Shown: positions 10,150 through 44,532, counted from the stretch's first letter. The stretch is DNA of 60,522 nucleotides from Eubacteriales bacterium (GCA_045652845.1 JAZOLJ010000008.1:1-60522); one strand, 5' to 3'. Notes: a model not told the origin generated them from the sequence alone. Numbers and translations: made by a program.

Positions 10150-10183
10150 CCGGCAGCTGCCGAACCCCGCACCAAACGCAAAA

Positions 10184-10211: not shown

Positions 10212-10238
10212 TTGGCTAGTGTTGTCTATTTAGATGCA
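10212..10238. repeat. 27-nt direct repeat X27b
   Basis: See 8820-8846. Confidence 0.85.
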
Positions 10239-10240
10239 GA

Positions 10241-11020: not shown

Positions 11021-11105
11021 TAATCCTTTCTTATCATGTTCTTCTTGAATATCGATGCTAAGTATCTTATTAATATTTGCAATTTATTTCATTCAAACAT
11101 CAAAA

Positions 11106-12017
11106 TCAATTTCCAGGATAATTGACAAATCCGAAATTTTTTGTGCTCAAGGGCAATGAATTTGATTTAAATTGCTTGTTCATAGTATTCAATAGCATTT
11201 GCAGATAGATGGTTGCGGCCTGACTTGTTTCACCAGGCGATAATGCTGTTGCTGTACTTGAATAATTGTCATATGGCAATTGCGTTGTATCCAAATCAAT
11301 TGTAGAAGCCACGATTTTTCCTTCTATATCAGATGCGACATGAGTAGAATGCCAATAATTAAAAGTATATGCATATACTCCACTTGCACCTGGTTCAATA
11401 TTTATGGTAAAGAAATATTTAGAATCCTTTGATAAACGACATGCAACAAAATTTGTGCCTTCGCTTTTCGACAAATTAAACTTATATGCATCACTAGAAA
11501 TGTAAACTGTCTTTTCATAAGACCAATAAATCCCTCCTGTATAAATGTTTGTTGCTTTTGTCCCACGAGTTAACACAAAATTCAGAAGAGTTTGATAATA
11601 ATCTATTTCACATACCTCACACGATTCTACTCCTTCGTGGTCATAAATACTATATGTGCCATCGGTAGTTTCGCAAACAGAACATTGTTTGGGGGCAATA
11701 CATGTTGCATCAATCCAAGAGTGGCCTAAAGATGAGCCTTCGATTTCTTCGCAGGCAGAGCAGGTTTTAGGCGAGGTACAGGTTGCATCAACCCAAGAAT
11801 GTCCTAAAGATACCCCCGTTGTTTCATCACACAAAGAACATGTTTTAGGAGCAGTGCAGGTTGCTGATTTCCATATATGTTGACATGATTCTGATGTTTT
11901 TGACGAGGAACATGCAATTGTAGTTAACAGTATACATATTGCAATCAAAGCGCAAAATAACTTAAATGTTGCATGTAGATATTTACCCTTGAATTTCATA
12001 ATAATAAATCCTTTCAT
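11106..12017 (-). CDS. Lipoprotein with three tandem Cys-rich repeats (H-x-W-x3-TC-x2-PK-x-CS-x-C)
   Basis: Lipobox LTTIAC. The repeats are HIWKSATCTAPKTCSLCDETTGVSLG, HSWVDATCTSPKTCSACEEIEGSSLG and HSWIDATCIAPKQCSVCETTDG. AT-rich codon usage. Confidence 0.7.
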   Translation of the reverse strand: MKGFIIMKFKGKYLHATFKLFCALIAICILLTTIACSSSKTSESCQHIWKSATCTAPKTCSLCDETTGVSLGHSWVDATCTSPKTCSACEEIEGSSLGHSWIDATCIAPKQCSVCETTDGTYSIYDHEGVESCEVCEIDYYQTLLNFVLTRGTKATNIYTGGIYWSYEKTVYISSDAYKFNLSKSEGTNFVACRLSKDSKYFFTINIEPGASGVYAYTFNYWHSTHVASDIEGKIVASTIDLDTTQLPYDNYSSTATALSPGETSQAATIYLQMLLNTMNKQFKSNSLPLSTKNFGFVNYPGN

Positions 12018-12175
12018 TTGTTTTTGGGCGGTATTGCATTTTTAGGAATATGCCAAGGCGAGCCTGGCTTGTCCTGTGTGGCGCCCTCTATTTTTCTTTC
12101 ACGACACCACTTTTGAACTGTTGCTTGTGACACGCCCCATTTCTCGGCGGCGTCCTTTGTACCCATATCTGCCAT
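12014..12175 (-). CDS. Small helix-turn-helix protein (excisionase/MerR-like HTH_17 type), 53 aa, absent from the ORF track
   Basis: Hand translation gives MADMGTKDAAEKWGVSQATVQKWCRERKIEGATQDKPGSPWHIPKNAIPPKNK. The TGA overlaps the ATG of the lipoprotein gene (ATGA). GGAGG lies upstream. Confidence 0.6.
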   Translation of the reverse strand: MADMGTKDAAEKWGVSQATVQKWCRERKIEGATQDKPGSPWHIPKNAIPPKNK

Positions 12176-12220
12176 TTTGCTTTATTTAACCTCCTTGCAA
12201 AACAGTTTTAGTAGAGTTTG

Positions 12221-12240
12221 GTTTTGCGAACGAGCAAAAC
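12221..12240. promoter_or_regulatory. Candidate operator in the divergent HTH/XRE intergenic region
   Basis: Inverted repeat gttttgc-gaacga-gcaaaac. An extended -10 TGTTATAAT for the XRE gene lies about 60 nt downstream. Confidence 0.35.
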
Positions 12241-12338
12241 AAGAACTATACTGCCTATAATTGTATCATCATAGTTCCTGTTTGTCAAGGGTTTTATGTG
12301 TTATAATTCCTATATAAAGTGCGAAAAGAGGAAGAATT

Positions 12339-12656
12339 ATGCTTGTTTTCGATTTTCTTGCGATTGGCAATAAACTCTGCCTGATCAGAAAAGCTATGGG
12401 AATGACACAAGCAGAGGTTGCAGAAGCAGCAGGCGTTTGCGACAGGACCTACGCCGATATCGAGCGAGGCACGGTCAATATGCGTGTGGAAACGCTGTTA
12501 CGCATATGTAAGGTGCTGAAAATCACCCCCGACGAGGTATTGACAAGCGACACCGACCTTTCCTCTGATGAAATTTTGGCTCTTCTCAATTCCGCATCAA
12601 GCAAAAACAAGAAAACGGCTTTGAAGATATTAGAGGCATATTTACAAAGTATTTGA
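12339..12656 (+). CDS. XRE family transcriptional regulator
   Basis: 105 aa. The Cro/C1-type HTH reads LIRKAMGMTQAEVAEAAGVCDRTYADIERGTVNMRVETLLRICKVLKITPDEVL. Confidence 0.85.
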   Translation: MLVFDFLAIGNKLCLIRKAMGMTQAEVAEAAGVCDRTYADIERGTVNMRVETLLRICKVLKITPDEVLTSDTDLSSDEILALLNSASSKNKKTALKILEAYLQSI

Positions 12657-12667
12657 TAGAAACAAAC

Positions 12668-12699
12668 AAAAAAGAACGGACATCAGTCCGTTCTTTTTT
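12668..12699 (+). terminator. Terminator of the XRE gene
   Basis: agaacggac-atca-gtccgttct flanked by an A-run and tttttg. Confidence 0.75.
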
Positions 12700-12761
12700 G
12701 TTATGCGCTTGATGGGACTTGCCCCGCTTTGGCGGCGAGCCGCCGAAGTTAAAGGATGATG

Positions 12762-12914
12762 GGACGTTGAACCACTTTGCAGGGCTTTGCCCTGCACGTT
12801 TGAAGAAGGTCTTGATGCCTGAACGGCATCATTTTGCTTTGCAAAAATCGACCTTCTTCTCTGCCGCCGCTTCGTGTGGTGCTGATGGGGACGAACGCAA
12901 GGGCGGCAGGGGTT
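12762..12914. repeat. 153-bp hairpin-rich intergenic repeat, copy B
   Basis: See 9997-10149 (151 of 153 identical, same orientation). Confidence 0.9.
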
Positions 12915-12920
12915 CAAGAC

Positions 12921-12978
12921 CGCGCTTCGCGCGGCAGCAAAAAAGAGAGCCTCCCGATTGGGAGACTCTCTTTTTTGT
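12921..12978. repeat. Repeat T3: double-hairpin unit serving as terminator of tRNA-Leu
   Basis: ccgcgcttcgcgcgg cagc aaaaaagagagcctccc-gatt-gggagactctc ttttttgttgg, immediately 3' of the tRNA on the minus strand. Confidence 0.8.
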
Positions 12979-13063
12979 TGGTGCGAGAAACGGGACTTGA
13001 ACCCGTACGGTGTAAACCACACGCCCCTCAAACGTGCGCGTCTGCCAGTTCCGCCACTCTCGC
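12979..13063 (-). tRNA. tRNA-Leu (anticodon GAG), class II, CCA encoded
   Basis: Folded by hand from the reverse complement GCGAGAG-TG-GCG-GAACTGGCAGA-CGC-G-CACGT-TTGAGGG-GCGTG-TGGTTTACACCGT-ACGGG-TTCAAGT-CCCGT-TTCTCGC-ACCA. It has a 7-bp acceptor stem (one G-U), a 3-bp D stem, a 13-nt variable arm and a TTCAAGT T-loop. Confidence 0.9.
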
Positions 13064-13077
13064 GTGGCAACGCTACT

Positions 13078-13106
13078 ATTATACACAAATGGCAAAGGCT
13101 TGTCAA
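13078..13106 (-). promoter_or_regulatory. Perfect consensus SigA promoter for tRNA-Leu
   Basis: On the minus strand: TTGACA (13106-13101), 17 nt, TATAAT (13083-13078). The tRNA 5' end lies 15 nt downstream of the -10. Confidence 0.75.
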
Positions 13107-20114: not shown

Positions 20115-20486
20115 TCAGCCGCGCGGCTTGCCTCCGCGGCAAATGGCAGCAGCGATCAAGCCAAAGACAAGCGCCGCGGCAGTGCCGCCTGCGGCAGCGC
20201 TAAGACCGCCCGTAAACGCACCGATCAAGCCCCTCTCGTTCACCGCCTCGCGCACGCCCTTGAAAATGAGATAACCAAACCCCGTTAAGGGGGTAGTTGC
20301 CCCCGCGCCCGCAAACTCTACTAATGGGCGGTACAGCCCCACGGCACCGAGCAGCACGCCCGCAACCACAAAAGAAACGAGTATGCGCGCAGGGGTCAGC
20401 TTGGTTTTGTCAATGAGGATCTGCGCGATCACGCAAAACGCGCCGCCCACCAAAAACGCCCAAAGCAGCCTTAACACAATTTCCAT
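20115..20486 (-). CDS. spoVAE: Stage V sporulation protein AE (SpoVAEB type)
   Basis: 123 aa starting at MEIVLRLLWAFLVGGAFCVIAQ (GGAGG 8 nt upstream). It aligns by eye along its whole length with B. subtilis SpoVAEB: WAFLVGGAICVIGQ..., FAGAGATVP.T.FG, GLIG....G. Confidence 0.85.
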   Translation of the reverse strand: MEIVLRLLWAFLVGGAFCVIAQILIDKTKLTPARILVSFVVAGVLLGAVGLYRPLVEFAGAGATTPLTGFGYLIFKGVREAVNERGLIGAFTGGLSAAAGGTAAALVFGLIAAAICRGGKPRG

Positions 20487-21490
20487 TCGCTTTCCTCCTT
20501 TGCCGTAAGGCAGACAAGATGTGCAATGGCAGGAATGCACTCGCCCTGCTGAATGATCTGTGGGCTCATCATGGCGCCCGTGCCGAGAAAAAGCACGCGG
20601 CGCAGCTCACCCGACGCGAGCTTTGGCAAAATATACGAGGCAAGCACCGCCGCCGAGCAGCCGCACCCTGACCCACCCGCGTGGGTATCCTGCGTTTCAC
20701 GGCTGTAAATCATCATGCCGCAATCGTTGTAAACGTCGCGCACGTCTATGCCATCCATTGCCATTAGATCGCACAAAATAGCACTGCCCTCGTAGCCGAG
20801 ATCCCCCGTGGCGATCAGATCAAAATCGCGGGGGCGCTTGCCCGACTCCCTAAAAAATCGCAGCAGCGTATCTGCCGCGGCAGGTGCCATTGCCGCGCCC
20901 ATGTTGGCGGCATCCTTAATGCCCTTTTCTACCACTGTTCCGGGCATCACGCCGCGGATCAGTGCCTCGGCGCGCTCGCTCTCGCCTACCACAAACGCCC
21001 CCGCACCCGTTACCGTCCACTGTGCGGTAGGCGTGCGCTGCGCGCCATATTCAAGCGGCGAGCGATACTGACGCTCGGCGGTGCAGTTGTGCGAGGATGC
21101 CACCGCCGCCGCGCGACGCAGCTGACCGCTTGAGGTCAGCAAAGCTGCCAGCAGCAGCCCCTCCGCTGCCGTGGAGCAAGCACCGTATAACCCCAAATAC
21201 GGTACGTCAAAATCCTTTAATCCGTATGCTGCACCCACGCACTGATTGAGCAGATCGCCCGCTAAAATCGCGTCAAGCTCCTCCTCGTGCAGTCCGCCCT
21301 TTGCCAGCGCGGTATTAAGTGCAAGGCGCTGCAGCTCCGCCTCTGCCTTTTCCCAAGTCCTTTGCCCGAAGCGGTCGTCCTCACCGTGCAGATCGAAGAA
21401 GCCCCCAAGCGGGCCGTTTTTTTCGATTTTTCCCACCACAGATGCGGCGCAAAGTATGCCGCACTCGGTGATCTTTAATGCCTTTCTCAT
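20471..21490 (-). CDS. spoVAD: Stage V sporulation protein AD
   Basis: 339 aa from MRKALK. Thiolase-fold SpoVAD-like sequence (GPLGGFFD..., DLLNQC, GACST, SSHNCTAERQYR.P.EYG.QR). It sits directly upstream of spoVAE and overlaps it. Confidence 0.85.
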   Translation of the reverse strand: MRKALKITECGILCAASVVGKIEKNGPLGGFFDLHGEDDRFGQRTWEKAEAELQRLALNTALAKGGLHEEELDAILAGDLLNQCVGAAYGLKDFDVPYLGLYGACSTAAEGLLLAALLTSSGQLRRAAAVASSHNCTAERQYRSPLEYGAQRTPTAQWTVTGAGAFVVGESERAEALIRGVMPGTVVEKGIKDAANMGAAMAPAAADTLLRFFRESGKRPRDFDLIATGDLGYEGSAILCDLMAMDGIDVRDVYNDCGMMIYSRETQDTHAGGSGCGCSAAVLASYILPKLASGELRRVLFLGTGAMMSPQIIQQGECIPAIAHLVCLTAKEESEWKLC

Positions 21491-21544: not shown

Positions 21545-21580
21545 AGAAAAAAGTGTGTTGCGCGACATCGCGCAACACAC
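21545..21580 (-). terminator. Terminator at the left end of the phage-derived island
   Basis: 12-bp stem gtgtgttgcgcg/cgcgcaacacac with loop acat, followed on the minus strand by ttttttct. Confidence 0.75.
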
Positions 21581-21588
21581 CGTGGATA

Positions 21589-22035
21589 TTATGCGGGCTT
21601 GTAGGCAAGCACTGCCTCAAGCACCTCGCGCAAATTGCAAAGGATAGCACAGGCGGCATCCTTTTTGGCTACTGCCTCTGCCCGCTCGGCATCTGCCACC
21701 GCGAGCGCCGCTTCCAGTGCCTCGGCACGCTCACGGAGAGCCGCGCACTCGGCGTGCAACGCTTCAATTTCGCTATCACGCGCCGCAAGCTGCTCGTCAA
21801 GCAGCTCGGCATCTGCCTCGGTGGGGGTGCCAACCATCACAAAATTCGCATCGTATGCGGGGTTATCGAACCAAACCTCACCCTCGCATTTTACGTAATC
21901 GTCTGCCGCCTCGTCCCAGCCGTAGGACTTGGTTTCGGTATAGCCGCGATAACGCGACACGGCAGGATTTTCCTTTACCTTTTCAAAGAGCGCCCGCACA
22001 TCTTGGCGGGTGCTGACCTTCTCCTGATAATTCAA
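21589..22035 (-). CDS. Hypothetical phage-associated protein with Ala/Glu-rich coiled-coil C-terminus
   Basis: 148 aa, apparent TTG start. It is the last gene of the island operon before the terminator. Confidence 0.5.
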   Translation of the reverse strand: MNYQEKVSTRQDVRALFEKVKENPAVSRYRGYTETKSYGWDEAADDYVKCEGEVWFDNPAYDANFVMVGTPTEADAELLDEQLAARDSEIEALHAECAALRERAEALEAALAVADAERAEAVAKKDAACAILCNLREVLEAVLAYKPA

Positions 22036-22136
22036 AACAGCTTTTCAACTCCTTTCAAGATTTTGAGCACAGCTTCAAGGATTTCTGCGCCCTCCTCGCG
22101 CTGCATCATATCGAGCGCGCGGCTTTTCACGTGCAG

Positions 22137-22496
22137 TCATTCAAGCGTATCGGTCTTGCCATGGGCATTTACGCCCTTTGAATACGCAATATCCGCCTCA
22201 ATGCGTGCCGTCAGCTCCTCCTCGTTAAACTCACATCCAAGGTCGGCAGCAAGCACGCGCAAGCGCGACAGCACGTAGTTCAGCTTTTCTGCCGAGGAAT
22301 ATTCGGTAAACTGCTCTGCCTGCAGCTCGTACTCACGCGCCGCCTCAAAGAGTGCCGTCATGCACTGCAAGCCCTTCAGCCTGCCCGTGTGGCAAAACTT
22401 ATACACGTTATACGCAAGTGCCGCAAGGTTTACAAGGATACCGAAGCAAATGCCAACCAGCTCCCAATTACAGCTGATCCATTCAAACACCGTCAT
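22137..22496 (-). CDS. Holin-like protein (LL-H family-like, tentative)
   Basis: 119 aa with a single N-terminal TM (WELVGICFGILVNLAALAYNVY) followed by a charged helical tail. This layout resembles LL-H type holins. Confidence 0.4.
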   Translation of the reverse strand: MTVFEWISCNWELVGICFGILVNLAALAYNVYKFCHTGRLKGLQCMTALFEAAREYELQAEQFTEYSSAEKLNYVLSRLRVLAADLGCEFNEEELTARIEADIAYSKGVNAHGKTDTLE

Positions 22497-22505
22497 ATCG
22501 CCTCC

Positions 22506-22853
22506 TTACCGCGCCCCGCGCCGTCTGCCAAATCCGCCGCGGCGTTGCAAAAAGCGTGCGTATTCGCCGTACGCCTCCTTAAAAACGCCGTTTGCAAACT
22601 CATAGGTTTCGGGCGTGCCGTGCACAAACTCCAGCATTGCCACAAGATAGGTCCAGTAGAGCCTGTCGTAGGGCGCGGGAACGCTGAGCTGCTCACCGGA
22701 AAGCCCAATATAGCGATTGTCACAGACATATCTGCTATGAAGCTCGCAGGCGATCTTTTTCTCAAGCTCCTCAAGCCAGCGGAGCATCACGGTATCCTCA
22801 AGATCATGCGGCTTTACGCTTTGCACGAATGCCAATACTTCATTTTTTGTCAT
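22506..22853 (-). CDS. Hypothetical phage protein in head-completion position
   Basis: 115 aa from MTKNEVLAF (GAGGTGG RBS). Arg/Gly-rich C-terminus. Located downstream of the capsid gene. Confidence 0.45.
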   Translation of the reverse strand: MTKNEVLAFVQSVKPHDLEDTVMLRWLEELEKKIACELHSRYVCDNRYIGLSGEQLSVPAPYDRLYWTYLVAMLEFVHGTPETYEFANGVFKEAYGEYARFLQRRGGFGRRRGAR

Positions 22854-22863
22854 GTAAGCCACC

Positions 22864-23277
22864 TCACACATCGCGTCTGCGGCTCTCATCGGCAAAGCGA
22901 CCCGCCTCGCGCTCCATCAGCTCGGCGGTGCGCAGATCCTGGATCTCGGATTGATCGAGCAAAAGCGCAAACTTGCGGCGGATCCTGGTCCACACACCGC
23001 GACGGATCACGCAGTTTTTGCCGTTGATCGCCACGTAGACGTCATCCTTATATTTTTCGTTATCCTTAAACAGGCGCACCTCAACGTACTCGTTGAGCCA
23101 TGCCTCCTGCTCGCGCAAAAAGTGCTTAAACTTTTCGGCTTGTGCGCTTTCCTCGCGCGCCTTTCCGTCCTTTTCGTCGGAAAGCATGGCAAGCCTTGCC
23201 TCATAGGCGGCACGCAGCTCCTCGATCTCCTTTTGGAGTGCGGAAAGCGTTACCTGCTCTTTTTCAGTCGCTGACAT
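22864..23277 (-). CDS. Hypothetical phage protein (coiled-coil N-terminus)
   Basis: 137 aa, AAAGGAG RBS, immediately downstream of the major capsid gene. Confidence 0.45.
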   Translation of the reverse strand: MSATEKEQVTLSALQKEIEELRAAYEARLAMLSDEKDGKAREESAQAEKFKHFLREQEAWLNEYVEVRLFKDNEKYKDDVYVAINGKNCVIRRGVWTRIRRKFALLLDQSEIQDLRTAELMEREAGRFADESRRRDV

Positions 23278-23344
23278 AAATTCTCCTTTCAGCTACACGC
23301 GGCGTGCCGCGTGTAGCATTTGTACATTTTGTACCGATACGTGA

Positions 23345-24739
23345 TCAGTTTTCGCCCACCTCAAAGGTAGAGGCGGTTTCAATACGGATCATAAATGCCT
23401 CCACCAGACGCGCCGCAGCCTTGGTTGCCTTCCAGCCAACGGTTGCACGCTGATTGAGGGGGTCTGCCGTGCCGGCAGAGCCAAGCTGCTTCACAATGTG
23501 CTGCAGACCGCCACCCGTCAGCTCGGTGGTGCCATAGGCGTTGTCACCGAGAATAAGCGTAGCGTAAACATCTCTGCCCGCAAGCCCTGCCTCACCGGGA
23601 TAGAGGATATCCGAGGCGGTGGTCACGAGGTCGGTCGTACCGATGCCGCCTGCCACCAGCTGTCTGTCAAAATACAGGTAGTTATCACTGCTTTCGCTGT
23701 AAACGGCACCGGTTACCTCTGCATACTGCCAGGATGCCTCGGAGGCATCGTACATCAAAACAGCTCTGCCCACCATATCGCGCGTAGCGCGATGACCCGA
23801 GGCGCCCGAGCCGATCTTCAGGCGATATCTTGAGCCCGTACCAAAGCCATCGGTGGCAATACCAGCGCTATCAAGCGTGCTGTAAGCACCTGCAAGGCAC
23901 GCCATGGTGCGCGAGGTGGGGGTAAGATCGGGGGCGTGGAACACCTTTGCCTCGGTGCTTTCCACAAAGCGTACACCCTCGATCATACCGATCTCGCCCT
24001 CGTAAAGCTCCTTGGTATCGCAATACTGGTGCGGATACTTCCAGTTGGCATCGTTGGTGAGGTCGTAGGCACAGTCGGGGTGAATGATGCAGGCGTATGC
24101 GCCGTTGATCTTCTCTGCGTTCTGATTTTTGAGAAAACGCACGGCGCGCTTGATGCAATCCACGCTCATATAGTGGTTGCCGCTTTCCTGACCGCCCACC
24201 AGCAGGTAACGGGCGGTAACGGCATCCTCGCCGTACTGCACGTTCGTGCCGCCGCAAAGCACCTCACGGGTGATGGTATCCAGCGTTCTGCCTGCCTGCG
24301 AGCCGAGCAGCTTGGTTGCCATAACGAGATTGTTGTCGATGGCGGCAAGCAGCAAAAGATCGGAAAGCTCTACGTATCCGCCATACTGTCTTACCGTTGC
24401 CTCAACGGCACCCATGTTAAGGGACTGACCCGTGGGGGTCACGCCCTCCGAAAGAGCCGCGGTCAGCTTGGGCAGCGGATCGTATTTGCGGAAGCGAATG
24501 GATTTGCCACCGTTTTTGGGGATGGCATGCTTTTGCGCAAACTGATCGTGAATGAGATTGGGCTCGGCGTTGTCGATGAGATAATCCGCATAATAGGTGC
24601 GCATCTCGTCGGAAAGCCCGCCGCCCTCAACGTATGCCGTAACGGTATCGGTTTCCGTGTTGGCATAGCCTGTGGTCGTGTTAACGTTTTCGCCTGCGCC
24701 GAATTGCTGCAGGTCGAAGATCCTTGTTACTTTGTTCAT
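23345..24739 (-). CDS. Major capsid protein, N4-gp56-like family
   Basis: 464 aa. The block GGKSIRFRKYDPLPK...LSEGVTPTGQSL....VEATVRQYGGYVELSDLL..AIDN matches the N4-gp56 family MCP pattern (recollection). It follows the scaffold gene. Confidence 0.8.
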   Translation of the reverse strand: MNKVTRIFDLQQFGAGENVNTTTGYANTETDTVTAYVEGGGLSDEMRTYYADYLIDNAEPNLIHDQFAQKHAIPKNGGKSIRFRKYDPLPKLTAALSEGVTPTGQSLNMGAVEATVRQYGGYVELSDLLLLAAIDNNLVMATKLLGSQAGRTLDTITREVLCGGTNVQYGEDAVTARYLLVGGQESGNHYMSVDCIKRAVRFLKNQNAEKINGAYACIIHPDCAYDLTNDANWKYPHQYCDTKELYEGEIGMIEGVRFVESTEAKVFHAPDLTPTSRTMACLAGAYSTLDSAGIATDGFGTGSRYRLKIGSGASGHRATRDMVGRAVLMYDASEASWQYAEVTGAVYSESSDNYLYFDRQLVAGGIGTTDLVTTASDILYPGEAGLAGRDVYATLILGDNAYGTTELTGGGLQHIVKQLGSAGTADPLNQRATVGWKATKAAARLVEAFMIRIETASTFEVGEN

Positions 24740-24775
24740 ACCTTTTCCTTTCTTGTTTTTGGCAAAAAAGCGCAG

Positions 24776-25417
24776 TTAGAACTCAATACGCTCGCCCCGT
24801 GCGGCGCGCCTTGCCATTTCGGCACGCTCGGCACGCGTAAGGCGTGAGGCACCGCTGCCAAACGGTGCACCGACACCGGGAGCCAGTGCACTTTCAGCAG
24901 GTCGCATGCCTCTGGCGCGGATGCTTTCTGTCACCGCGCGCTCTGTTTCCTCTCTCGCGCGCTCTACTGCCGCCTTGATCACTGCATCGATGTTTTCCTC
25001 CTTTGCAGTGTCTCGCGCTTCACGCGATGCGGGGGCTGCCGCCTCCTCTGTCGGCGCGCTTTTTTTCTCTTCCGCCCGGATGGCGGCGGTCAGCGCCTCC
25101 TCATCTCGTGTGCCGTAACGGTCAGCCGCGGCGTCGATCACGCCGCGTGCACGTTCAAGCTCCTCCATCATGCTTTTTTGCGCCTTGAAGCGCTTATTGA
25201 AGGTTTCTTGAAAAAATGCCTGAAAAAGGTCCTTGTATTCCCCCTCCATCAAATTTTTAAAGCTTTCCCTTCGCGCCTGTATGGTTTGCTCCCCGGCGAC
25301 AGGAGTATTTCCCTCGTTTTCTTCGCCCGTTGCCTGCCGGGTGAGCTCAGGCGTGCTCTCTCCACCCAAATCACTCTCGCCGAAAAGCGAGAGGTCATAC
25401 CAAATTTTGCTTTTCAT
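24776..25417 (-). CDS. Capsid scaffolding protein
   Basis: 213 aa, highly charged, Ala/Glu/Arg-rich and helical. Located between the Prp and capsid genes. Confidence 0.6.
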   Translation of the reverse strand: MKSKIWYDLSLFGESDLGGESTPELTRQATGEENEGNTPVAGEQTIQARRESFKNLMEGEYKDLFQAFFQETFNKRFKAQKSMMEELERARGVIDAAADRYGTRDEEALTAAIRAEEKKSAPTEEAAAPASREARDTAKEENIDAVIKAAVERAREETERAVTESIRARGMRPAESALAPGVGAPFGSGASRLTRAERAEMARRAARGERIEF

Positions 25418-25486
25418 ATATACCTCACCTTTGTGATGTCAAGCGCGAGTGCGAAAGCCCGCGCCTATTTTGATGCATAAACGCGC

Positions 25487-25795
25487 TCAAATTGCCGATT
25501 TCTCGGTACAATATACCACGTTTTGCGGGTATTCGTCGGCAAGCTGCAGCAGTGCCTGTGCCGTCATATCAAATGCATCGCCAAGTCCGCTGCGGCAGGA
25601 AAGAAACAGACTGCCCGACTCACGGCTTACGCGCACATGACGGCAAACGGGGTTGTTTTTGGCATAGCCGGCAAGCGCCTGCGTCAGTGCCGAAACCGCT
25701 GCGCAAACCAGCCGCCCCTCGGGTGTGCTGCAGGCATGCCCCAAAACCAGCAAGCGGCACCTTTCACCTTGCCGATCGGCATAGACCCTGATCAT
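25487..25795 (-). CDS. Prp-family cysteine protease (ribosomal-processing protease homologue used for capsid maturation)
   Basis: 102 aa. The His/Cys dyad context LGHACSTPEGRLVCAAVSAL matches the GHA...D.VCA.VS motif of Prp/DUF464. ATGA overlap with the portal gene. Confidence 0.75.
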   Translation of the reverse strand: MIRVYADRQGERCRLLVLGHACSTPEGRLVCAAVSALTQALAGYAKNNPVCRHVRVSRESGSLFLSCRSGLGDAFDMTAQALLQLADEYPQNVVYCTEKSAI

Positions 25796-27546
25796 ATCGC
25801 ACCGTTTTGCGTGGCGGTATCCGCCACACGCTCGGCGGCGCGCCGCGCACGCTCGGTCAATCCCTCAAGATCGGGCGCTGTGCGATTTTCCGCCACAGGC
25901 GTGTCCCTTTTTGCGGCAGACGCGCCCCCCTCACTGCCGTCACGCCGAAACTGTGCGATCCGTGCGCGCAAATTTTCAACACCCGGGAAATCCATAGCAT
26001 CAAGCAGCACCTCCGCCGCCGCCGCGTTGGCGGGATCAAAAACGCCCATTGTATAAAGACTTTTGAGCATCTCGTTGTACGAATATCTGGTATACGGGTT
26101 CTGTTTTTCAGCACGCACGTCGATATCAAAGATCGGGCGGCGTGAAAGTGGCGTTCCGTTTACCGAGAGCCCCGTTTGCTGCTCTTTAATATGTGAATTT
26201 GACCAATGCAGGTAGCGATTTCCGCCGTTTTTGCCGAGCACGCGGAAGCAACGCACCTCGCCGTAGAACTGGCGCACGCACTCCACCATCAAGCGCGCCA
26301 TCTCCACAAACGCGCGATAAGAGGCGCTGATGATGTCACGCATGCTCTTGTTGCCCGACTCCTGCAGTGCGGCGATCGCCGCAGCAGCCGTTACACCCGT
26401 ATCGGTAGAGCCCTGCAGCACGTCGCGGTTCGCCGTGGTTTCCTTTAGCTCCTTGATCTTGTCATTTTTGAGCTGCAGCCAGAGGGTATCTGGGGGTGCG
26501 ACCTCGATCTGGCGCAAGCGCTCCTCGTCGGGATCACCCTCCACGGAAACGATGCGCCTTGAAAGATCGCAAAATTCCTCCTCATTCACACCCGTGCTTC
26601 TCTTGCAAAAGTAACGCACACGCGTTGCCCAATCCATGTATTCGAGCAGATTGCGGTCCATGCGGTCGATATACATTTGCGGATCTCTGCCAAGGGCAAT
26701 AATTCCAAAGCCAAGCGTGCTTCCCTCAATGGGATACAGCACGTCAAGCACGAAGGGGTATTGCCCATGCTCGTACCATCCGTTTTGATAAAGCGGATCG
26801 TTTTCGGTAGAAAACAGCACCGTATCCCCTGCAAATTTGCAGTAGTGGAGCTGGCAACGCCCCTCGGGCGTGCGCTTTTTGTAATACCAATCCACAACCG
26901 CAACACGCCCCTCTCGCTCGCCCTGCGGGCAGAAAAAGGCATCAAGCTCACCCGCAGATTTTCCGTCATAGCGGGGAAAGCGCGCACGCAGTGCGGAAAT
27001 CTCCATCTCCTCAACAAAATATACCGAGCGTGAATGCTGCAGGCTTTTTACATTCGGCTGCCAATAAAGGTTTAAAAGATCCACACGGCGCACGTCAATG
27101 TCCCCTATCCCGTTTTCAAGCTCGGTGTTATAGAAAACACCCCACGCGCACACACCGTGCTTGAGCTTATACCACATATTATCGGAATACGCTCCCGCAA
27201 AGCCCGAGCGATCCAAAATAACGGGCAGAATGGCGGAAAGCGCACGTGCATCCTCCTCGTCGCACTCCTCGCGCGGCAGACAAACTGCGGTGGGAATGTT
27301 TTCCATCAGATCGGCGTGCTTTTGCATCAAGGCGTTAAAAAGCCACGCAGAGGTAGGGGCTGTGACCTCGCCGTCGCTATTTTTGCGTGCGCGCGGCGCC
27401 ATACGCAGGCGATACCAATCCTCCTCATCGCGCACTCTTGCAGCAAAGCTCTCGCGCTCGCGTCGCCACGCAAGCAGCTCCTCCATGGCAGCACGCACCT
27501 CTGCCTTTCCTATCACTGTTTTTCTTCTCATTTTCTCTCCTTTCAC
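25792..27546 (-). CDS. Portal protein
   Basis: 584 aa, located directly after TerL with an ATGA overlap. Size and position are typical. An alternative start lies 5 codons in, with AAAGGAG upstream. Confidence 0.7.
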   Translation of the reverse strand: MKGEKMRRKTVIGKAEVRAAMEELLAWRRERESFAARVRDEEDWYRLRMAPRARKNSDGEVTAPTSAWLFNALMQKHADLMENIPTAVCLPREECDEEDARALSAILPVILDRSGFAGAYSDNMWYKLKHGVCAWGVFYNTELENGIGDIDVRRVDLLNLYWQPNVKSLQHSRSVYFVEEMEISALRARFPRYDGKSAGELDAFFCPQGEREGRVAVVDWYYKKRTPEGRCQLHYCKFAGDTVLFSTENDPLYQNGWYEHGQYPFVLDVLYPIEGSTLGFGIIALGRDPQMYIDRMDRNLLEYMDWATRVRYFCKRSTGVNEEEFCDLSRRIVSVEGDPDEERLRQIEVAPPDTLWLQLKNDKIKELKETTANRDVLQGSTDTGVTAAAAIAALQESGNKSMRDIISASYRAFVEMARLMVECVRQFYGEVRCFRVLGKNGGNRYLHWSNSHIKEQQTGLSVNGTPLSRRPIFDIDVRAEKQNPYTRYSYNEMLKSLYTMGVFDPANAAAAEVLLDAMDFPGVENLRARIAQFRRDGSEGGASAAKRDTPVAENRTAPDLEGLTERARRAAERVADTATQNGAI

Positions 27547-28949
27547 CGCATTTCGCTGCGGTAGGCGTATTGCTTGATCTCGCGGTCAAGCGGATCAAAA
27601 AGCCTTGCCACCGTGTGCACTCTTGGCACGGCGGGGCGCATGGGAACAAGCATACAAAGATACCGCGTTTCATCGGCAATGTGATCCTCCATATCACTGT
27701 CAACGTCCTCCACGTGTGTGCGGCTGTACTGTAATTGCGGTACCGTGCGCAAAAATTCCTGACACGTGGAAAATACGTAAAGCATTGGTATACCGTTTGC
27801 ATCAAAGCTCAATCGGTTATGAAGCTGCATCCAGCCCGCCACACGTCGATTGTCACCGCGCTCAAAATAAACGCCGCAACGCTCGGCAGTTTGCGCCACA
27901 GACTCGCCGCGCGAGGCATCCCAAATGGCGGGGTCGGCAACTCCTGTGATCTGCTTGCCGCCAAGCCACGGATGCTCACGCTCGATGCGCGCGATCTCTC
28001 GAAAGATCTCCTCTGGGGACATGCGCACGCCCACGTTTGCCTCGCCGCGCACGCACCCGTAAAATTCCATGATGCGATAGAGCCTCCCATCGTGATCCTT
28101 TGCCCACCAGCCAACCGAAAAGGGCTTAGCGTAGCCAAAGTCAAAGGAGCGATACACCCGCCATTCGGGGGGCGGCGTAAAGGGCTCGATCACGTGTGTA
28201 TGGCGTCTGTCGGCATAATGGGCAGGGTCGTTGCGCAGCTCCTCAAAGACCTGCCCCTCATATACGTTCCAATCGCCCTCAAGGTGCGCGCGACGTTTGT
28301 GCGCGGGCAAAGCCTCAAGGCGGCGCACGTATTCGGGGTCTGCGTCCATTAGCACCCGATTATCATAAACCACGGCAGGAATAAAGGCATAATCCTCTGC
28401 CCGCTCGGACGCCTCGAAGCGGCGATCGATAAACAAACGCTTGATATAGGCGTGCCCTACCCCACCGGGGTTGCAGGTATAATACACACGCGCCGTGAAA
28501 TTCCTTTTGGTGGTGCGCAGTGCCGTGCAAATAAACACGATCCATTCCTCCTTAAAGTGCGTCGCCTCCTCAAAGCCGATCACGTCATATTCCGCGCCCT
28601 GATATTGCAGCACGTCACTGTCGGCATCGCAATAGCCGAGCGTGAGGCGCGATCCGTTTGGAAAAATAAACGCGCGCTCGTCCTTTTTAAAGCCGGCGTA
28701 TCCCGCCAGCTCGCTTTGCAGCGGCAGAATGTGATTTTCGCGCAGCTCCTGCAGGGTGCGGCGCAAAAGCAACAGGCGCAAATTCGGATATCGCATGGCA
28801 AGCATCACCATTTTGCGCCGCATTGCCCACGATTTACCTCCACCACGCGCACCGCCGTATGCCGTATGACGGGCACTTGAGCGAAAAAACTCGCGCTGCC
28901 GCGCGTTTGGCACCTCACGGCGCAGCCTTTGAAAGATCAGCGGCTCCAT
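27543..28949 (-). CDS. Terminase large subunit
   Basis: 468 aa. Walker A YGGARGGGKSW, Walker B-like YDVIGFEEATHF, and a C-terminal nuclease-like domain with acidic motifs. Confidence 0.9.
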   Translation of the reverse strand: MEPLIFQRLRREVPNARQREFFRSSARHTAYGGARGGGKSWAMRRKMVMLAMRYPNLRLLLLRRTLQELRENHILPLQSELAGYAGFKKDERAFIFPNGSRLTLGYCDADSDVLQYQGAEYDVIGFEEATHFKEEWIVFICTALRTTKRNFTARVYYTCNPGGVGHAYIKRLFIDRRFEASERAEDYAFIPAVVYDNRVLMDADPEYVRRLEALPAHKRRAHLEGDWNVYEGQVFEELRNDPAHYADRRHTHVIEPFTPPPEWRVYRSFDFGYAKPFSVGWWAKDHDGRLYRIMEFYGCVRGEANVGVRMSPEEIFREIARIEREHPWLGGKQITGVADPAIWDASRGESVAQTAERCGVYFERGDNRRVAGWMQLHNRLSFDANGIPMLYVFSTCQEFLRTVPQLQYSRTHVEDVDSDMEDHIADETRYLCMLVPMRPAVPRVHTVARLFDPLDREIKQYAYRSEMR

Positions 28950-29185
28950 TCCTCAAGCTCCCCCTCAAATTTGATCGTACCACTCGCCGCGCCGCCCTGC
29001 TCGGCGAGAGCGCTCTTGCCGCTAAGGCGATCAAGGATGCTTTCTGCCGCCTTGAGGCGAAGCTCGGGCTTTACTCCCTCATCCTGCATAAGTGAGAGGA
29101 TTACCCGTACTGCCGTGGTGCCCGACGCCTGCAAGAGATCTGCTGCACAGGGCTGCTTTTCCGGCTCTCTTATTTCCTGCGGCAT
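28937..29185 (-). CDS. Terminase small subunit-like protein (tentative)
   Basis: 82 aa, overlaps the TerL start by 13 nt. The VKPELRLKAAESILDR block resembles small-terminase C-terminal helices. Confidence 0.4.
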   Translation of the reverse strand: MPQEIREPEKQPCAADLLQASGTTAVRVILSLMQDEGVKPELRLKAAESILDRLSGKSALAEQGGAASGTIKFEGELEEWSR

Positions 29186-29202
29186 AGCGCGTCACCTCCG
29201 TT

Positions 29203-29556
29203 TCACGCCCCCCTACCGTCCTCGCCAAAGATAATACGGTAAGCACTCTCCTCTTTTTCGATCTTCACACGGCATTTATCAAGCAATGCGGTAATGCCAT
29301 CCCGCAGGATCAGCAGCGACGGCGTGCCATCTGCCAAAGGCTGTGCACATACCGCCTCCGTCGCCTCCTTATCCTTGATGAGTGCGAGAGTGAGAAGCAG
29401 CAGAAAGGCACCTGAAAGGCGTGCCGTTTCCTCCCAGCCTGCCAGCTCGTCGTGTAAACGCTTGATCTGCCTTGTGCGTTTTTCAAGCAGACTTTTTACG
29501 ATCTCCTCCTCGATCATGCGACCTTTCCCCGCAATAGGTTTTTCTTGCTTTTTCAT
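29203..29556 (-). CDS. Hypothetical phage protein
   Basis: 117 aa, ATGA overlap with the upstream Cys-rich ORF. Confidence 0.45.
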   Translation of the reverse strand: MKKQEKPIAGKGRMIEEEIVKSLLEKRTRQIKRLHDELAGWEETARLSGAFLLLLTLALIKDKEATEAVCAQPLADGTPSLLILRDGITALLDKCRVKIEKEESAYRIIFGEDGRGA

Positions 29557-29750
29557 TGATATCTCCTTTCGTAATATCCATCAAGTGCGTTTTTAAACGG
29601 ACAGCGCTTGTAATCATCGGGATGACCGCAATAGCCATACACAATGTCACGGCGCGCGCGGCGATCGGGAAATTTCAATTCCCCACATTCGCAATAAGTG
29701 ATCCCCGCCTTTTCATAGCGGAAATACGGGCACATTCCTGCAACCGGCAT
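29553..29750 (-). CDS. Small Cys-rich phage protein (65 aa), first gene of the leftward operon
   Basis: MPVAGMCPYFRYEKAGITYCECGELKFPDRRARRDIVYGYCGHPDDYKRCPF... has 5 Cys and 1 His. GGAGG lies 9 nt upstream of ATG 29750. The 174-aa ORF-track version would run through the promoter/operator region. Confidence 0.55.
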   Translation of the reverse strand: MPVAGMCPYFRYEKAGITYCECGELKFPDRRARRDIVYGYCGHPDDYKRCPFKNALDGYYERRYQ

Positions 29751-29770
29751 CTCTTCTATTCCTCCTTGTT

Positions 29771-29988
29771 CGTTTCGATTTCGGGACGGGAATTTTGTCG
29801 AAAGTTGTCTCATTTTTGGGACGATATAAATATACTCTCCCGCAAAATCAAATATAACGCACCGCGCTGTATTTCTTTTTCGAATTTTCCGTCCTTGTTT
29901 TGGGACGACTATAGCATACACTATCTCACCGTGTTTGTCAAGAACCAAAAGATGAACAAACTGTAAATTCGTCACATTTTTGTGACGA
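29771..29988. promoter_or_regulatory. Four operator-like imperfect inverted repeats (GTCnC-N6-8-GnGAC)
   Basis: Oa 29771-29788 cgtttcgatttcgggacg. Ob 29807-29823 gtctcatttttgggacg. Oc 29890-29907 cgtccttgttttgggacg. Od 29971-29986 gtcacatttttgtgac. Ob and Oc share ttttgggacga followed by a tata-rich stretch. Confidence 0.6.
29913..29941 (-). promoter_or_regulatory. Candidate leftward promoter of the head/packaging operon
   Basis: On the minus strand: TTGACA (29941-29936), 17 nt, TATGCT (29918-29913). Operator Oc starts 6 nt downstream of the -10. Confidence 0.5.
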
Positions 29989-29992
29989 CCGA

Positions 29993-30021
29993 TTGACAGC
30001 ACCGCCGGGCTTTGATACAAT
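29993..30021 (+). promoter_or_regulatory. Rightward promoter of the XRE/ImmA pair
   Basis: TTGACA (29993-29998), 17 nt, TACAAT (30016-30021). Operator Od abuts the -35. Confidence 0.6.
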
Positions 30022-30082
30022 AAAATTAAGAAATAAAGCCTTGCGCGGCAGCAGCCGTCGGGCACAAAGAAAGGCAACGGTT

Positions 30083-30394
30083 ATGACTGTATCAGACCGC
30101 ATTCGCGCACAAATGAAGCTACTGGATCTCTCCTACGGCGAGCTGGCAGCCGCCACAGGGCTTGCAAAATCCGCCGTGCATCGCTATGCCACGGGGCAAA
30201 CCGATAAGGTGCCCACCGAGGCTTTAGAAAAGCTGGCGCGTGCGCTGGGCGTGACCCCCGCGTTTCTCACGGGATGGGAGGAGGAGCGTCCTCACACGCT
30301 GGCAGCACACTTTGAGGGAGAGGAATTTTCTGATGAGGAGCTAAAGGAGATCGAGGATTTCGTGCGTTTTGTTAAATCGAAGCGAGGTTACTAA
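30083..30394 (+). CDS. XRE family phage repressor
   Basis: 103 aa from MTVSDRIRAQMKLLDLSYGELAAATGLAKSAVHRYATGQTDKVPTEALEKLARALGVTPAFL (Cro/C1 HTH). Confidence 0.8.
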   Translation: MTVSDRIRAQMKLLDLSYGELAAATGLAKSAVHRYATGQTDKVPTEALEKLARALGVTPAFLTGWEEERPHTLAAHFEGEEFSDEELKEIEDFVRFVKSKRGY

Positions 30395-30404
30395 GGGAGG
30401 CACT

Positions 30405-30911
30405 ATGTACGAAAAGCTACTGGACGAAGCAAATCAAAACGGCATTACCGTTATTGAAAAATATCCCTTTACCTCACCCCGCATTCGCGGGCTTTGCTGC
30501 GACGATACCATTGCCATCAGTGCACAGGTGGATACCGAGGCAGAGCGCACCGTGGTGCTTTGCGAGGAGCTGACCCATGCCCTGCACTCCTACGGCGATA
30601 TATTAGAAGACCCACGCATGGAACGGCGCACCCGTGAGCGCATTTTTGACCGCTTGATCGGGATAAAGGGCTTGCTCGGCGCCTCGCTGCAGGGCTGCCG
30701 CGAGCCATGGGAATTTGCTGAATTTTTCGGCATTCCAGAGGAATTTTTCGTGGCTGCCATGAAAAACTACCGCGAGCGTTTTGGTGTGATGAAAAAGGTA
30801 AGCACCGATAGCGGTGATTTTATCTTATCCTTTGAACCAACCTTTCGCGTGCGCCGCGTGTACACAACAAGAAACAAAAGAAAAATGATCCGAAAAGAGC
30901 AAGCAATGTAA
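30405..30911 (+). CDS. ImmA/IrrE family metallo-endopeptidase (anti-repressor protease)
   Basis: 168 aa from MYEKLL (GGGAGG RBS). It pairs with the XRE gene and has the motif region VVLCEELTHALH. The canonical HExxH motif is degenerate here (EELTH). Confidence 0.6.
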   Translation: MYEKLLDEANQNGITVIEKYPFTSPRIRGLCCDDTIAISAQVDTEAERTVVLCEELTHALHSYGDILEDPRMERRTRERIFDRLIGIKGLLGASLQGCREPWEFAEFFGIPEEFFVAAMKNYRERFGVMKKVSTDSGDFILSFEPTFRVRRVYTTRNKRKMIRKEQAM

Positions 30912-30965
30912 GCGGGTGCTTCATGGCATCGGATCAGGTAGCCACGCGGGCATTTACATAAAAAA

Positions 30966-31015
30966 GCAAAAAGAGACCCGCCGATTGGGAATTCCCAACC
31001 GACGGTTTTTGTTGT
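30966..31015. terminator. Terminator between the ImmA gene and the ABC operon end
   Basis: Imperfect hairpin ccgccgattggg-aatt-cccaaccgacgg flanked by aaaaagaga and tttttgttg. Confidence 0.55.
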
Positions 31016-31036
31016 AGCATTTGCCACAATTTGAAA

Positions 31037-32149
31037 TTATCCAACGATACCCGAACGCTCGATACCCTGTACCAAATGTCTTTGGCAGAAGATGTAAAGA
31101 ATGATAAGCGGGAAGCAAGCCATCAGACCGCAAGTATAGTTGATCGCCTGCTTGAATCCTCCGCCGCCACCGGGCAGGTTTGAATAGATCGTTTGAAGTG
31201 TTGCGGGGTGCTCAAGCTTTGGCAGATAGGTCATAAATGACGGAGGAGCACCCGTGAAGAACAGCGGGAGATAGAAGTCATCCGTCCACTGCCAGCAGAA
31301 CGCAAACAAGAATACAGTAATCAGCATCGGCACGGACAGGGGCAAGATAACCTGTATAAAGGTACGGAAGGTATTTGCACCGTCGAGGTATGCGGATTCC
31401 TCAAGCTCATCGGGCACGCCGCGGAAGAACTGGCGCAGCAAGAAAATGTAAAGACCGTTCTTGAAGGCAAAGCCTGTAGCCGACATCAAGAGGATCGGCA
31501 CAACGCTTCTGATCGTGCTGATACCGCCAATGAAGCTTTCGGGCAAGATCTTGATCTTTGCAAGTACTGCGTCAAGCCCCTCGATGCCCGTGCGCGCACC
31601 ACCCGCCAGGAAGTTCAGGATACCGAAAATATCCATGTGCTGGAAGCGGTAGAAGATCGCAGACTGCATCGTACCGTGAGGGATCGCAAGTGACAGAACA
31701 ACCAGGAAGAAGACCACCTTTGCGCCGCGGAATTTAAATTTCGCAAGGCCGTAACCGATAAGTGCACAGGAAAAGGTCTGCAGAATTGCACAGCCAAGAG
31801 AAAACGCGAGCGTGAGGAAAAAGATCTTAAAATACTGGAGTTCGACGATGATCGACTTATAAATTACTGCAGAGAACGCGCGAGGCACGTTCACAACGGT
31901 AACGTCAGCAAAGTTTTCCGGCGCCATGATGGAGCGCATCACCAACGTGTAGAAGGGCCTAAGGACAACGAATGCGATACCGATCAAAAGCAGAAGGCGG
32001 AAGATGTACCACAGCACGTTTTTGGCAAAATACGAGGAAAGGTATTTGGCTTTTAGACGTTCCTTTAAGCCGGTGCGCTCAAAATCCACACGGATCTTGT
32101 TTTTGGACTCACGCACAACCTGCGGCTTATTATCCATATTTTGTGTCAT
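31037..32149 (-). CDS. Carbohydrate-type ABC transporter permease (MalG-like) with long N-terminal extension
   Basis: 370 aa. EAA loop LEESAYLDGANTFRTFIQVILPLSVP. An insert of about 60 aa lies between TM helices. Confidence 0.8.
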   Translation of the reverse strand: MTQNMDNKPQVVRESKNKIRVDFERTGLKERLKAKYLSSYFAKNVLWYIFRLLLLIGIAFVVLRPFYTLVMRSIMAPENFADVTVVNVPRAFSAVIYKSIIVELQYFKIFFLTLAFSLGCAILQTFSCALIGYGLAKFKFRGAKVVFFLVVLSLAIPHGTMQSAIFYRFQHMDIFGILNFLAGGARTGIEGLDAVLAKIKILPESFIGGISTIRSVVPILLMSATGFAFKNGLYIFLLRQFFRGVPDELEESAYLDGANTFRTFIQVILPLSVPMLITVFLFAFCWQWTDDFYLPLFFTGAPPSFMTYLPKLEHPATLQTIYSNLPGGGGGFKQAINYTCGLMACFPLIILYIFCQRHLVQGIERSGIVG

Positions 32150-44510: not shown

Positions 44511-44532
44511 GTATAATTTTCTCGCGCATAAT

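Follow-up and report, generated by a model that had tools for sequence, protein, structure and literature searches.

Introduction

Why would a gut bacterium keep the genes with which a phage builds and fills its head, together with a repressor switch of phage type, and no tail? The question is raised by a stretch of 60,522 nucleotides from a Eubacteriales bacterium (GCA_045652845.1 JAZOLJ010000008.1:1-60522), the whole of which is called the window here. Positions 21552-30911 of the window hold a phage-derived island of 9.3 kb that consists of a minus-strand operon of 12 tightly packed genes (21589-29750) and a divergent two-gene regulatory unit. An earlier note had offered three explanations for the island: a deletion remnant, a domesticated capsid-producing unit akin to a gene transfer agent (GTA), or a satellite of the capsid-forming phage-inducible chromosomal island (cf-PICI) type. 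The analysis presented here favors a domesticated and inducible GTA-like module for making capsids and packaging DNA, for which the genes for delivery and lysis would lie at some other place or their products be provided in trans; the probability of this reading is put at roughly 0.55. The best explanation of the module's source is a Page-like podophage, and it would have become a fixed part of the chromosome in a lineage of spore-formers of the Oscillospiraceae type. The argument turns on inheritance, as a unit that is passed on intact at one chromosomal place in ~30 species of gut Clostridia is best regarded as a GTA-like unit kept by its host and not as a decaying prophage.

A Fixed and Selected Locus

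The island is vertically inherited, under purifying selection and at a fixed chromosomal position. Relatives of its capsid were sought with one genome per species, which gave 93 loci, 80 of which were fetched, and 80 more were taken from IMG/VR; genes in the relatives were called by a codon-usage scorer, their proteins were clustered and maps were drawn. The nearest set, group A, comprises 31 genome loci from ~30 species and three IMG/VR contigs, with capsids 73-95% identical to that of the window and with the same gene order. An FGGY (glycerol-type) kinase gene adjoins the immA gene of the regulatory unit in most of these loci, and the far side is formed by either spoVAD-spoVAE-potABCD or serC-serA-prfB. 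No integrase, tail fiber, endolysin or replication gene was found in any group-A locus. The note had advised a search of related genomes for a full prophage at the same site, and related species were found to carry the same truncated unit there instead.

No frameshift was found in the island, and the claim that its head genes are full length extends to the relatives, as the core genes are intact in every complete copy. Where the contig allows, group-A genes are full length and in a single frame for terL (27/27), portal (28/28), Prp (28/28), capsid (29/29), g137 (32/32), the holin (32/32) and g65cys (26/26). The median ratio of nonsynonymous to synonymous substitution rates (dN/dS) in group A is 0.145 for the capsid, 0.11 for terL, 0.21 for the portal and 0.09 for xre, and in the closest pair, the window and locus L001, it falls to 0.033, 0.059 and 0.093 for capsid, terL and portal, respectively. 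The same check, as proposed beforehand for these three genes, thus returns values of 0.03-0.21, indicative of purifying selection. Synonymous divergence (dS) between the window and L001 is 0.53-1.47 in island genes and, at a comparable level, 0.82-0.99 in the adjacent host genes, and the protein distances of terL and portal follow those of linked flanking genes (kinase, serC, ftsZ or ffh) with a Pearson coefficient of ~0.8 in group A and in group B, a second head-only group (Mantel p = 0.001). The GC content at third codon positions is 0.622 in island genes and 0.623 in host genes, which bears out the impression of a host-like composition. In terms of what defines a GTA, the island is a fixed, vertically inherited cluster with no genes for replication, integration or excision and with purifying selection on its capsid, terL and portal.

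A clean-looking but non-functional prophage remnant would share with the island its derivation by deletion from a larger phage, and the fast evolution of g117 and Prp (dN/dS 0.47-0.62) could be read in the same way. Such a remnant is nevertheless extremely improbable, given frames that are intact in ~30 species at a dS of ~1, capsid dN/dS values down to 0.03-0.15, conserved promoters and operators, and the parallel existence of group B as a second head-only lineage. The first of the three earlier explanations, understood as a recent or strain-specific deletion, is likewise contradicted by the presence of the same unit at the same site in relatives and by purifying selection. The island did arise by deletion from a podophage of ~40 kb, but this deletion was ancient. 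It is the second explanation, a domesticated GTA-like unit, that is best supported, by co-divergence, by intact genes in ~30 species, by a conserved switch and by an analog in FpGTA, the agent of Faecalibacterium prausnitzii.

Relatives and Origin

Group A is one of four architectures among the relatives. Group B is represented by ~25 species (L031-L050, L052, L055, L064, L070, L079), with capsids ~60% identical to that of the window, and is again head-only. A repressor with a helix-turn-helix (HTH) and a Peptidase_S24 domain (CI/LexA-type) is divergent here from g65cys, g117, a small terminase subunit (TerS) of 168 amino acids (aa), the large subunit TerL, portal, Prp, scaffold, capsid and g137, directly after which the unit ends; its neighbors are invariably ftsZ-radC on the one side and, on the other, an Mbeg1-like gene together with the ffh-rpsP operon. 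Values of dN/dS in group B are 0.057 for terL, 0.079 for the portal, 0.124 for the capsid and 0.031 for the repressor. Group D consists of ~13-kb chromosomal clusters with a GC content of 60-69% (L057, L059, L062, L063, L094, L113, L114, L119, L121), flanked by SLH-domain and TetR host genes, that encode TerL, portal, scaffold, Prp, capsid, g137, an adaptor-fiber fusion, an amidase, a holin, a putative nozzle (cluster c23) and an Ala/Lys-rich protein. Genes for a regulator, integration or replication are all missing from group D, the members of which look like complete GTA-type clusters. Group C is made up of full phages of 36-43 kb. Two unannotated "Bacteriophage sp." contigs of ~12 kb from human feces, L163 (MT836159.1) and L165 (MT836218.1), belong to the window's protein lineage as well and read terL-portal-Prp-scaffold-capsid-g137-g129-nozzle-...-c63, where c63 is an Ala/Lys-rich protein.

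In a tree of concatenated TerL, portal and capsid sequences from 93 loci, groups A and B each form a monophyletic group, the sister of A is group D, and the full phages fall outside A and B. The basal member of group B, L031, still has the putative nozzle. The closest cultured relatives of the capsid, at 36% identity, are the Pagevirus podophages of Bacillus megaterium. Pagevirus (Page, Pony, Palmer and their kin) and gut phages of 36-43 kb that have not been cultured share with the island the module TerS-TerL-(small)-portal-scaffold-capsid followed by three small genes and the tail, although they are full genomes of 40 kb with tail, lysis, replication and recombination genes. The shared module order and the capsid identity with Pagevirus therefore identify the ancestry. 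Scaffolds have median lengths of 213, 202 and 177 aa in the three chromosomally fixed groups, as against 329 aa in the full phages (~40% shorter), and the portals are shorter as well; the short scaffolds are compatible with a smaller capsid.

The assignment of c23 (~510 aa) as a nozzle is putative and was judged by gene position. It is kept at the end of the operon in only three group-A loci (L012:12701-14398, L016:12568-14220 and L019:13281-14930), where the copies are full length (550-566 aa) and mutually 22-24% identical, compared with ~80% for the capsids of the same loci. No homologs of the tail or nozzle genes of related phages were found elsewhere in the 60-kb window, neither of c23 nor of c63.

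The occurrence of two head-only lineages permits a reading in which the tail-less, DNA-filled capsid is itself the product under selection, a podophage having been reduced independently in two lineages of Clostridia to a chromosomally fixed head and packaging module under a repressor, with loss of nozzle and fibers. Host DNA would then be packaged in situ, and the particles would become infective only with tail parts taken from unrelated co-resident or environmental phages, or the capsid would serve a function other than delivery. This is regarded as a tentative proposal and, on balance, an unlikely one.

Comparison with Known Systems

By analogy, the closest known relative of the island appears to be operon I of FpGTA (Borodovich et al., Nat Commun 2026; PMC12946183). 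Long-read sequencing of virus-like particles from the gut has been reported to show that Ruminococcaceae and Oscillospiraceae there commonly enclose short, random fragments of their genomes in such particles; only FpGTA, in Faecalibacterium, has been tied to a locus, and packaging in Oscillospiraceae was described without a locus being assigned (PMC12946183). Operon I, of ~10 kb, encodes a TerS that lacks a DNA-binding domain, TerL, portal, a protein annotated as Prp, an N4-gp56 capsid, a nozzle and a TolA-like protein, while operon II, an unlinked 5.5-kb unit 125 kb away, encodes fibers, a receptor-binding protein, a holin and an endolysin; the capsids measure 40 nm, show no tail and hold ~9 kb of random DNA (PMC12946183). 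Both systems are chromosomal, podovirus-derived head clusters of ~10 kb in gut members of the Oscillospirales and near-ubiquitous in the host clade, with the same order of a TerS lacking a DNA-binding domain, TerL, portal, Prp, N4-gp56 capsid and small conserved proteins, with no replication or integration genes, and with no fiber and lysis genes in the head operon. The names given by the Prokaryotic Genome Annotation Pipeline to RCH50849 and RCH50850 are also those of head-module families found in the window, and the gene order of L163 and L165 is consistent with the components named for operon I (PMC12946183). From the architecture and the shared family assignments we infer homology of the island to the operon I proteins (RCH50844-RCH50852). 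The two also differ: operon I includes a nozzle and an abundant "TolA-like" protein, neither of which is present in the window, whereas the window has a holin and an adjacent XRE/ImmA switch, no such adjacent switch being described for FpGTA, and its host carries sporulation genes. No Faecalibacterium was found among the 80 fetched genome loci or among the best 120 matches of three protein searches.

Comparison with cf-PICIs bears on the third of the earlier explanations. Like the island, cf-PICIs have their own TerS and TerL, portal, capsid and head-tail adaptor, and they carry neither tail nor lysis genes (PMC10085698; 10.1101/2025.02.11.637232), although within this component set the TerS and adaptor assignments of the island are weak. 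Their particles are tail-less, DNA-filled capsids, and a regulator silences the element until it is induced; the same would hold for the island. However, cf-PICIs possess an integrase, a regulator of AlpA/Stl/MerR type, a primase-replicase and attachment (att) sites, and they are mobile elements that excise and replicate and that differ from strain to strain. None of these features is seen in the island, which co-diverges with its flanks, and neither integrase nor primase-replicase nor att sites were found in the window, in 34 group-A loci or in ~25 group-B loci. The island is moreover of the podovirus type, with an N4-gp56 capsid, a P22 portal and Prp, and not of a serine prohead protease or HK97/siphovirus lineage. 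The SatelliteFinder model for cf-PICIs forbids both tail and holin (PMC10085698); in the island no tail genes were found, but a gene of the Holin_LLH family is present. The island may in part function as a cf-PICI does, but its fixed position and the absence of integrase, primase-replicase and att sites give no support to membership of that family.

Borrowing of tails from other phages is nonetheless a live mechanistic possibility. In its full form this reading holds that the island makes its own filled heads and obtains nozzle, fibers and lysis from a co-resident or super-infecting podophage of its lineage, or free tails from other phages. Lacking an integrase and a replicon, such a tail-borrower would spread by packaging itself in situ with flanking DNA, followed by homologous recombination in recipients. 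This would agree with the retention of an adaptor-like or fiber-anchor protein and a holin in a unit without nozzle, fiber or endolysin, and with the progressive shedding of the nozzle in both head-only lineages while heads were kept; a helper phage could also trigger the ImmA/XRE switch. The release by cf-PICIs of tail-less, DNA-filled capsids that later receive tails from various phages provides a precedent (10.1101/2025.02.11.637232). In addition, one metagenome-assembled genome (MAG), JAZMZI01, contains a group-B island (L039) alongside a full phage from that lineage (L072), so that L072 is a possible tail donor for L039; however, the two are only 40% identical in the portal and 45% in g137, with 64-73% identity in the capsid. 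Podovirus tails are, besides, built piecewise on the portal and not pre-made. Since no integrase, excisionase, primase/replicase or att repeats were found in ~58 head-only loci, and since a fixed position and co-divergence with the flanks are at odds with satellites that are usually strain-variable, a tail-borrower is considered rather unlikely.

Two further systems resemble the favored GTA-like module in part. RcGTA is likewise a vertically inherited structural cluster under purifying selection without replication or integration genes, with a TerS that lacks a DNA-binding domain and with accessory structural and lysis genes at other loci (in part after PMC12946183). However, its head cluster also encodes a siphovirus tail, it is governed by the host regulators CtrA and GafA, and its lineage, of the HK97 type, is unrelated and occurs in another phylum. 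PBSX of Bacillus subtilis is a domesticated phage element under an Xre repressor that is induced by DNA damage and packs random host DNA. It thus shares with the island a Firmicute host and the Xre repressor, but it is a complete, myovirus-like killing particle with tail and lysis genes and of unrelated structural lineage.

The Regulatory Switch

The XRE repressor and ImmA/IrrE protease reported to be divergent from the operon were both confirmed by profile matches, and only their start codons are revised. The xre gene (30083-30394, plus strand; PF01381 HTH_3, phrog_8/4) more likely begins at the ATG at 30083, giving 103 aa, because the TTG start chosen before coincides with a -35 box. Similarly, immA (30405-30911, plus strand), which encodes an ImmA/IrrE-type metalloprotease and putative anti-repressor (phrog_87 at 2e-22; PF06114 weak), more likely begins at 30405, giving a protein of 168 aa, the length of its orthologs.

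The divergent near-consensus promoters and operator-like repeats claimed in the note could be located in the intergenic region, and the operon's own terminator at 21552-21581. The promoter of the head operon (29913-29941, minus strand) reads TTGACA-17-TATGCT and has an operator immediately downstream, and that of xre-immA (29993-30021, plus strand) reads TTGACA-17-TACAAT with an extended -10. Four operator-like sites, repeats of the TTTTGGGACGA type with the consensus CGTCNCAAAAANGNGACG, occupy 29779-29789, 29814-29824, 29898-29908 and 29978-29988; their half-sites are CGTC...GACG, and one copy lies within the perfect palindrome TCGTCAC-N6-GTGACGA. No LexA box was seen by eye in the intergenic region. 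A strict regular expression run over all group-A loci did not find the operator conserved as a literal motif, but it is conserved in the alignment of the nine closest species: when the window is aligned with eight further species, the -35/-10 pairs of both promoters are kept, as is each of the four operator positions, while the spacers have diverged. This, together with the dN/dS of 0.09 for XRE, indicates that the regulatory logic is maintained by selection.

Genes of the Head Operon

The open reading frames (ORFs) of the island and its flanks were scanned with Pfam, PHROG and NCBIfam profiles. The co-orientation, tight packing and overlaps of the operon genes described in the note were all found again, with overlaps of 4-13 nt at 25792-25795, 27543-27546, 28937-28949 and 29553-29556; inspection of the ORFs gave 12 genes, however, and not thirteen. 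The names proposed for TerL, portal, Prp, scaffold and N4-gp56 capsid were likewise upheld by profile matches. All genes described below are on the minus strand.

The first gene of the operon, g65cys (29553-29750, 65 aa), has conserved Cys7/20/22/41/50 and His43 in alignment and is probably metal-binding. It occurs in group B and in phage L076 as well, and its dN/dS is 0.11. The small protein g117 (29203-29556) evolves fast, with a dN/dS of 0.62; neither it nor g65cys has a match in Pfam, PHROG or NCBIfam. The next gene, g82 (28937-29185), encodes an 82-aa mini TerS-like protein. The TerS assignment made earlier holds only as a weak and partial match, as TerS PHROGs match g82 weakly, over a 45-aa stretch, in 12 of 19 orthologs. 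Profiles detected no DNA-binding domain in g82, and hhalign found no relation between it and the 168-aa TerS of group B. Then follow TerL (27543-28949), with ATPase and nuclease parts (phrog_979/phrog_2, PF03237/PF04466), in which GGARGGGKSW is confirmed as the Walker A motif, and a portal of the P22 type (25792-27546; PF16510 P22_portal at 1e-27, phrog_156 at 1.5e-63).

The Prp-type cysteine protease (25487-25795; PF04327 at 8e-7, phrog_4478) is a putative prohead maturation protease. Prp cuts off a leader like that of ribosomal protein L27, and its role is established in Staphylococcus phage 80alpha, which makes Prp the likely maturation protease here. An L27-leader-like motif recurs across groups A and B: the scaffold-like protein (24776-25417, 213 aa; phrog_13908) bears YDLSLFG|ESD at its N-terminus in group A, and the major capsid protein bears the predicted Prp cleavage motif FDLQQFG|AGE. 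The latter (23345-24739, 464 aa) belongs to the N4-gp56 family (phrog_1357 at 7e-82; TIGR04387 at 283 bits against a cut-off of 60). Relative to its counterparts in groups B and D and in the full phages, the group-A capsid has 35-120 aa more. In a comparison of L039 with L072 the extra residues are one internal insertion of ~70 aa, which may be an added surface or stabilizing domain.

Always 3' of the capsid gene lies g137 (22864-23277; phrog_15239 at 1e-21), a conserved head-associated protein that is present in all lineages and has 33 invariant columns in alignment; its structure model is poor (pLDDT 61.5), and its Foldseek matches are meaningless. The protein g129 (22506-22853), previously given as 129 aa, has 115 aa. 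Its AlphaFold model is a four-helix bundle (pLDDT 84.7) that in Foldseek resembles the N-terminal anchor domains of podovirus tail fibers (E 3e-5 to 6e-4), and against the PDB the top matches, which are weak, are the T7 gp11 adaptor and the Mu neck. With the match to phrog_12105, and with a gene that in full phages of the lineage immediately precedes c23, g129 is tentatively assigned as a head-to-tail adaptor or fiber-anchor type of protein. No significant match to capsid, portal, g129, c23 or g137 emerged from sequence and profile searches of the PDB. Look-ups by exact sequence gave no record of the window's capsid or g137, although a g137 of 100% identity occurs on an NCBI contig.

The penultimate gene, g119tm (22137-22496), encodes a single-pass membrane protein of 119 aa assigned as a Holin_LLH-family holin (PF09682). 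The holin-like label thus receives support at the level of the family, with matches in 7 of 21 orthologs and a best E of 3.4e-7, the copy in the window scoring only 0.015. The last gene, g148cc (21589-22035, 148 aa), is specific to group A and has a C-terminal coiled coil; it gave only weak coiled-coil matches and is conserved in 22 loci with a dN/dS of 0.31. The intrinsic terminator (21552-21581, minus strand), with a 13-bp stem of which 8 pairs are GC and a T-run, lies 8 nt past the stop codon of this gene. As to the claim that nothing tail-like is present, profile scans found no integrase, replication gene, endolysin, nozzle or fiber in the island or in the 60-kb window, but g129 stands as an exception. 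With an adaptor-like protein and a holin present, the island is therefore to be described as head, adaptor and holin, and not as strictly head-only.

Proposed Mechanism

The gene content allows a model of how the module may operate. By way of the four operators, XRE would silence the head promoter until a signal of damage or stress activates ImmA, which would cleave XRE, following the ImmR/ImmA logic of ICEBs1 and phi105. The 8.4-kb operon would then be transcribed, and portal, short scaffold and capsid protein would form a prohead that is probably smaller than that of the ancestor. Prp would remove the L27-like N-terminal leaders from capsid and scaffold, and TerL, together with a mini TerS in which no DNA-binding domain is recognizable, would fill the heads with chromosomal DNA by a headful mechanism. 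The portal vertex could be completed by g137 and the adaptor-like g129, and the holin may help release. The shortened scaffold and portal and the mini TerS are indirect hints that random host DNA may be packed in pieces too short to carry the whole cluster. Induction through cleavage of XRE by ImmA, processing by Prp, a small capsid, headful packaging without specificity, and release are parts of the model that we infer. For delivery, which calls for functions absent from the island, the most likely source, by analogy with FpGTA of Faecalibacterium, would be an unlinked operon for tail and lysis; otherwise, tails of co-resident phages may serve.

It is also conceivable that the function under selection is not gene transfer at all. 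Terminase and capsids might compete with, or cut, the DNA of relatives in a defense of the abortive-infection type, or stress might induce lysis and DNA release. The strong purifying selection on TerL, portal and capsid during the loss of delivery genes would suit such a function, as would the retention of a repressor and a protease, a switch by which infection or damage could be sensed, and a holin without an endolysin; FpGTA, too, may act like PBSX instead of transferring DNA (PMC12946183). However, no precedent for a head-only defense module was found, and Pfam and PHROG scans revealed no defense-type domains, the PADLOC library not having been searched. The retention of an adaptor-like protein, a scaffold and Prp maturation suggests, moreover, that complete, closed particles matter, and a non-transfer function is judged very unlikely.

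Several points nevertheless weigh against a GTA-like module. Classical GTAs are controlled by host regulators and not by a phage-type repressor. No tail or lysis operon was found within the 60-kb window, and the presence of c23 in only three group-A loci, at 22-24% identity, and in the basal member of group B makes the delivery machinery appear to be decaying and not conserved; in group A the delivery parts may be in the course of being lost or may turn over fast. Every one of the relatives is a MAG, the yardstick for co-divergence was linked flanking genes and not a genome phylogeny, and dS is near saturation except in the closest pairs.

Flanking Regions

The flanks consist of host genes, with spoVAD, a gene of the SpoVAC/EB family and a spermidine-type ABC transporter on one side and sugar ABC permeases on the other, and no att-like direct repeats were found at the borders of the island. 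In the window, spoVAD and a single SpoVAC/SpoVAEB-family gene (20115-21490) begin ~60 nt downstream of the island terminator. There is no second SpoVAC/EB-type gene upstream, where the island sits, and the arrangement is alike in L001-L008, L013 and L017. A link between island and sporulation was considered and rejected, as most group-A loci have serC beside the island and not spoVAD. On the opposite side, a 497-aa gene beside immA in relatives was suspected from its size to encode a serine recombinase and proved to be the FGGY kinase. The window, L012 and L030 have no FGGY kinase gene between immA and the ABC permeases (window 30911-31037), and L001, L005, L008 and L021 have there, in addition, a gene for a small membrane protein (c54); this variation points to local deletion or rearrangement of host DNA next to the island.

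Farther away, a patch of low GC content (0.35-0.46) at 10000-13100 adjoins tRNA-Leu(GAG) (12979-13063). It contains genes for a SHOCT-domain protein (10241-11020, minus strand), a 303-aa protein with no Pfam match (11106-12017, minus strand) and a small XRE HTH protein (12339-12656, plus strand). No integrase was found in the patch, which may be the remnant of another integrated element. Two very large ORFs of 2578 aa (50893-58629) and 1239 aa (40810-44529) have no Pfam match at E <= 1e-4.

Implications

The island resembles a system that was first reported in Faecalibacterium in 2026, and the window and its relatives provide concrete candidate loci for GTA-like packaging in other gut Clostridia. 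The podophage lineage behind them has been domesticated several times and to different degrees, as 13-kb clusters of head, tail and lysis genes, as an arrangement like that of FpGTA operon I, and as two independent head-only forms with a phage-type repressor. Those who annotate gut MAGs should not dismiss a clean "incomplete prophage" of this kind as junk. The loci make testable the stepwise origin of GTAs from phages, the selection by which a host may keep capsids that have no tails of their own, and the dependence of such capsids on an unlinked operon or on foreign tails.

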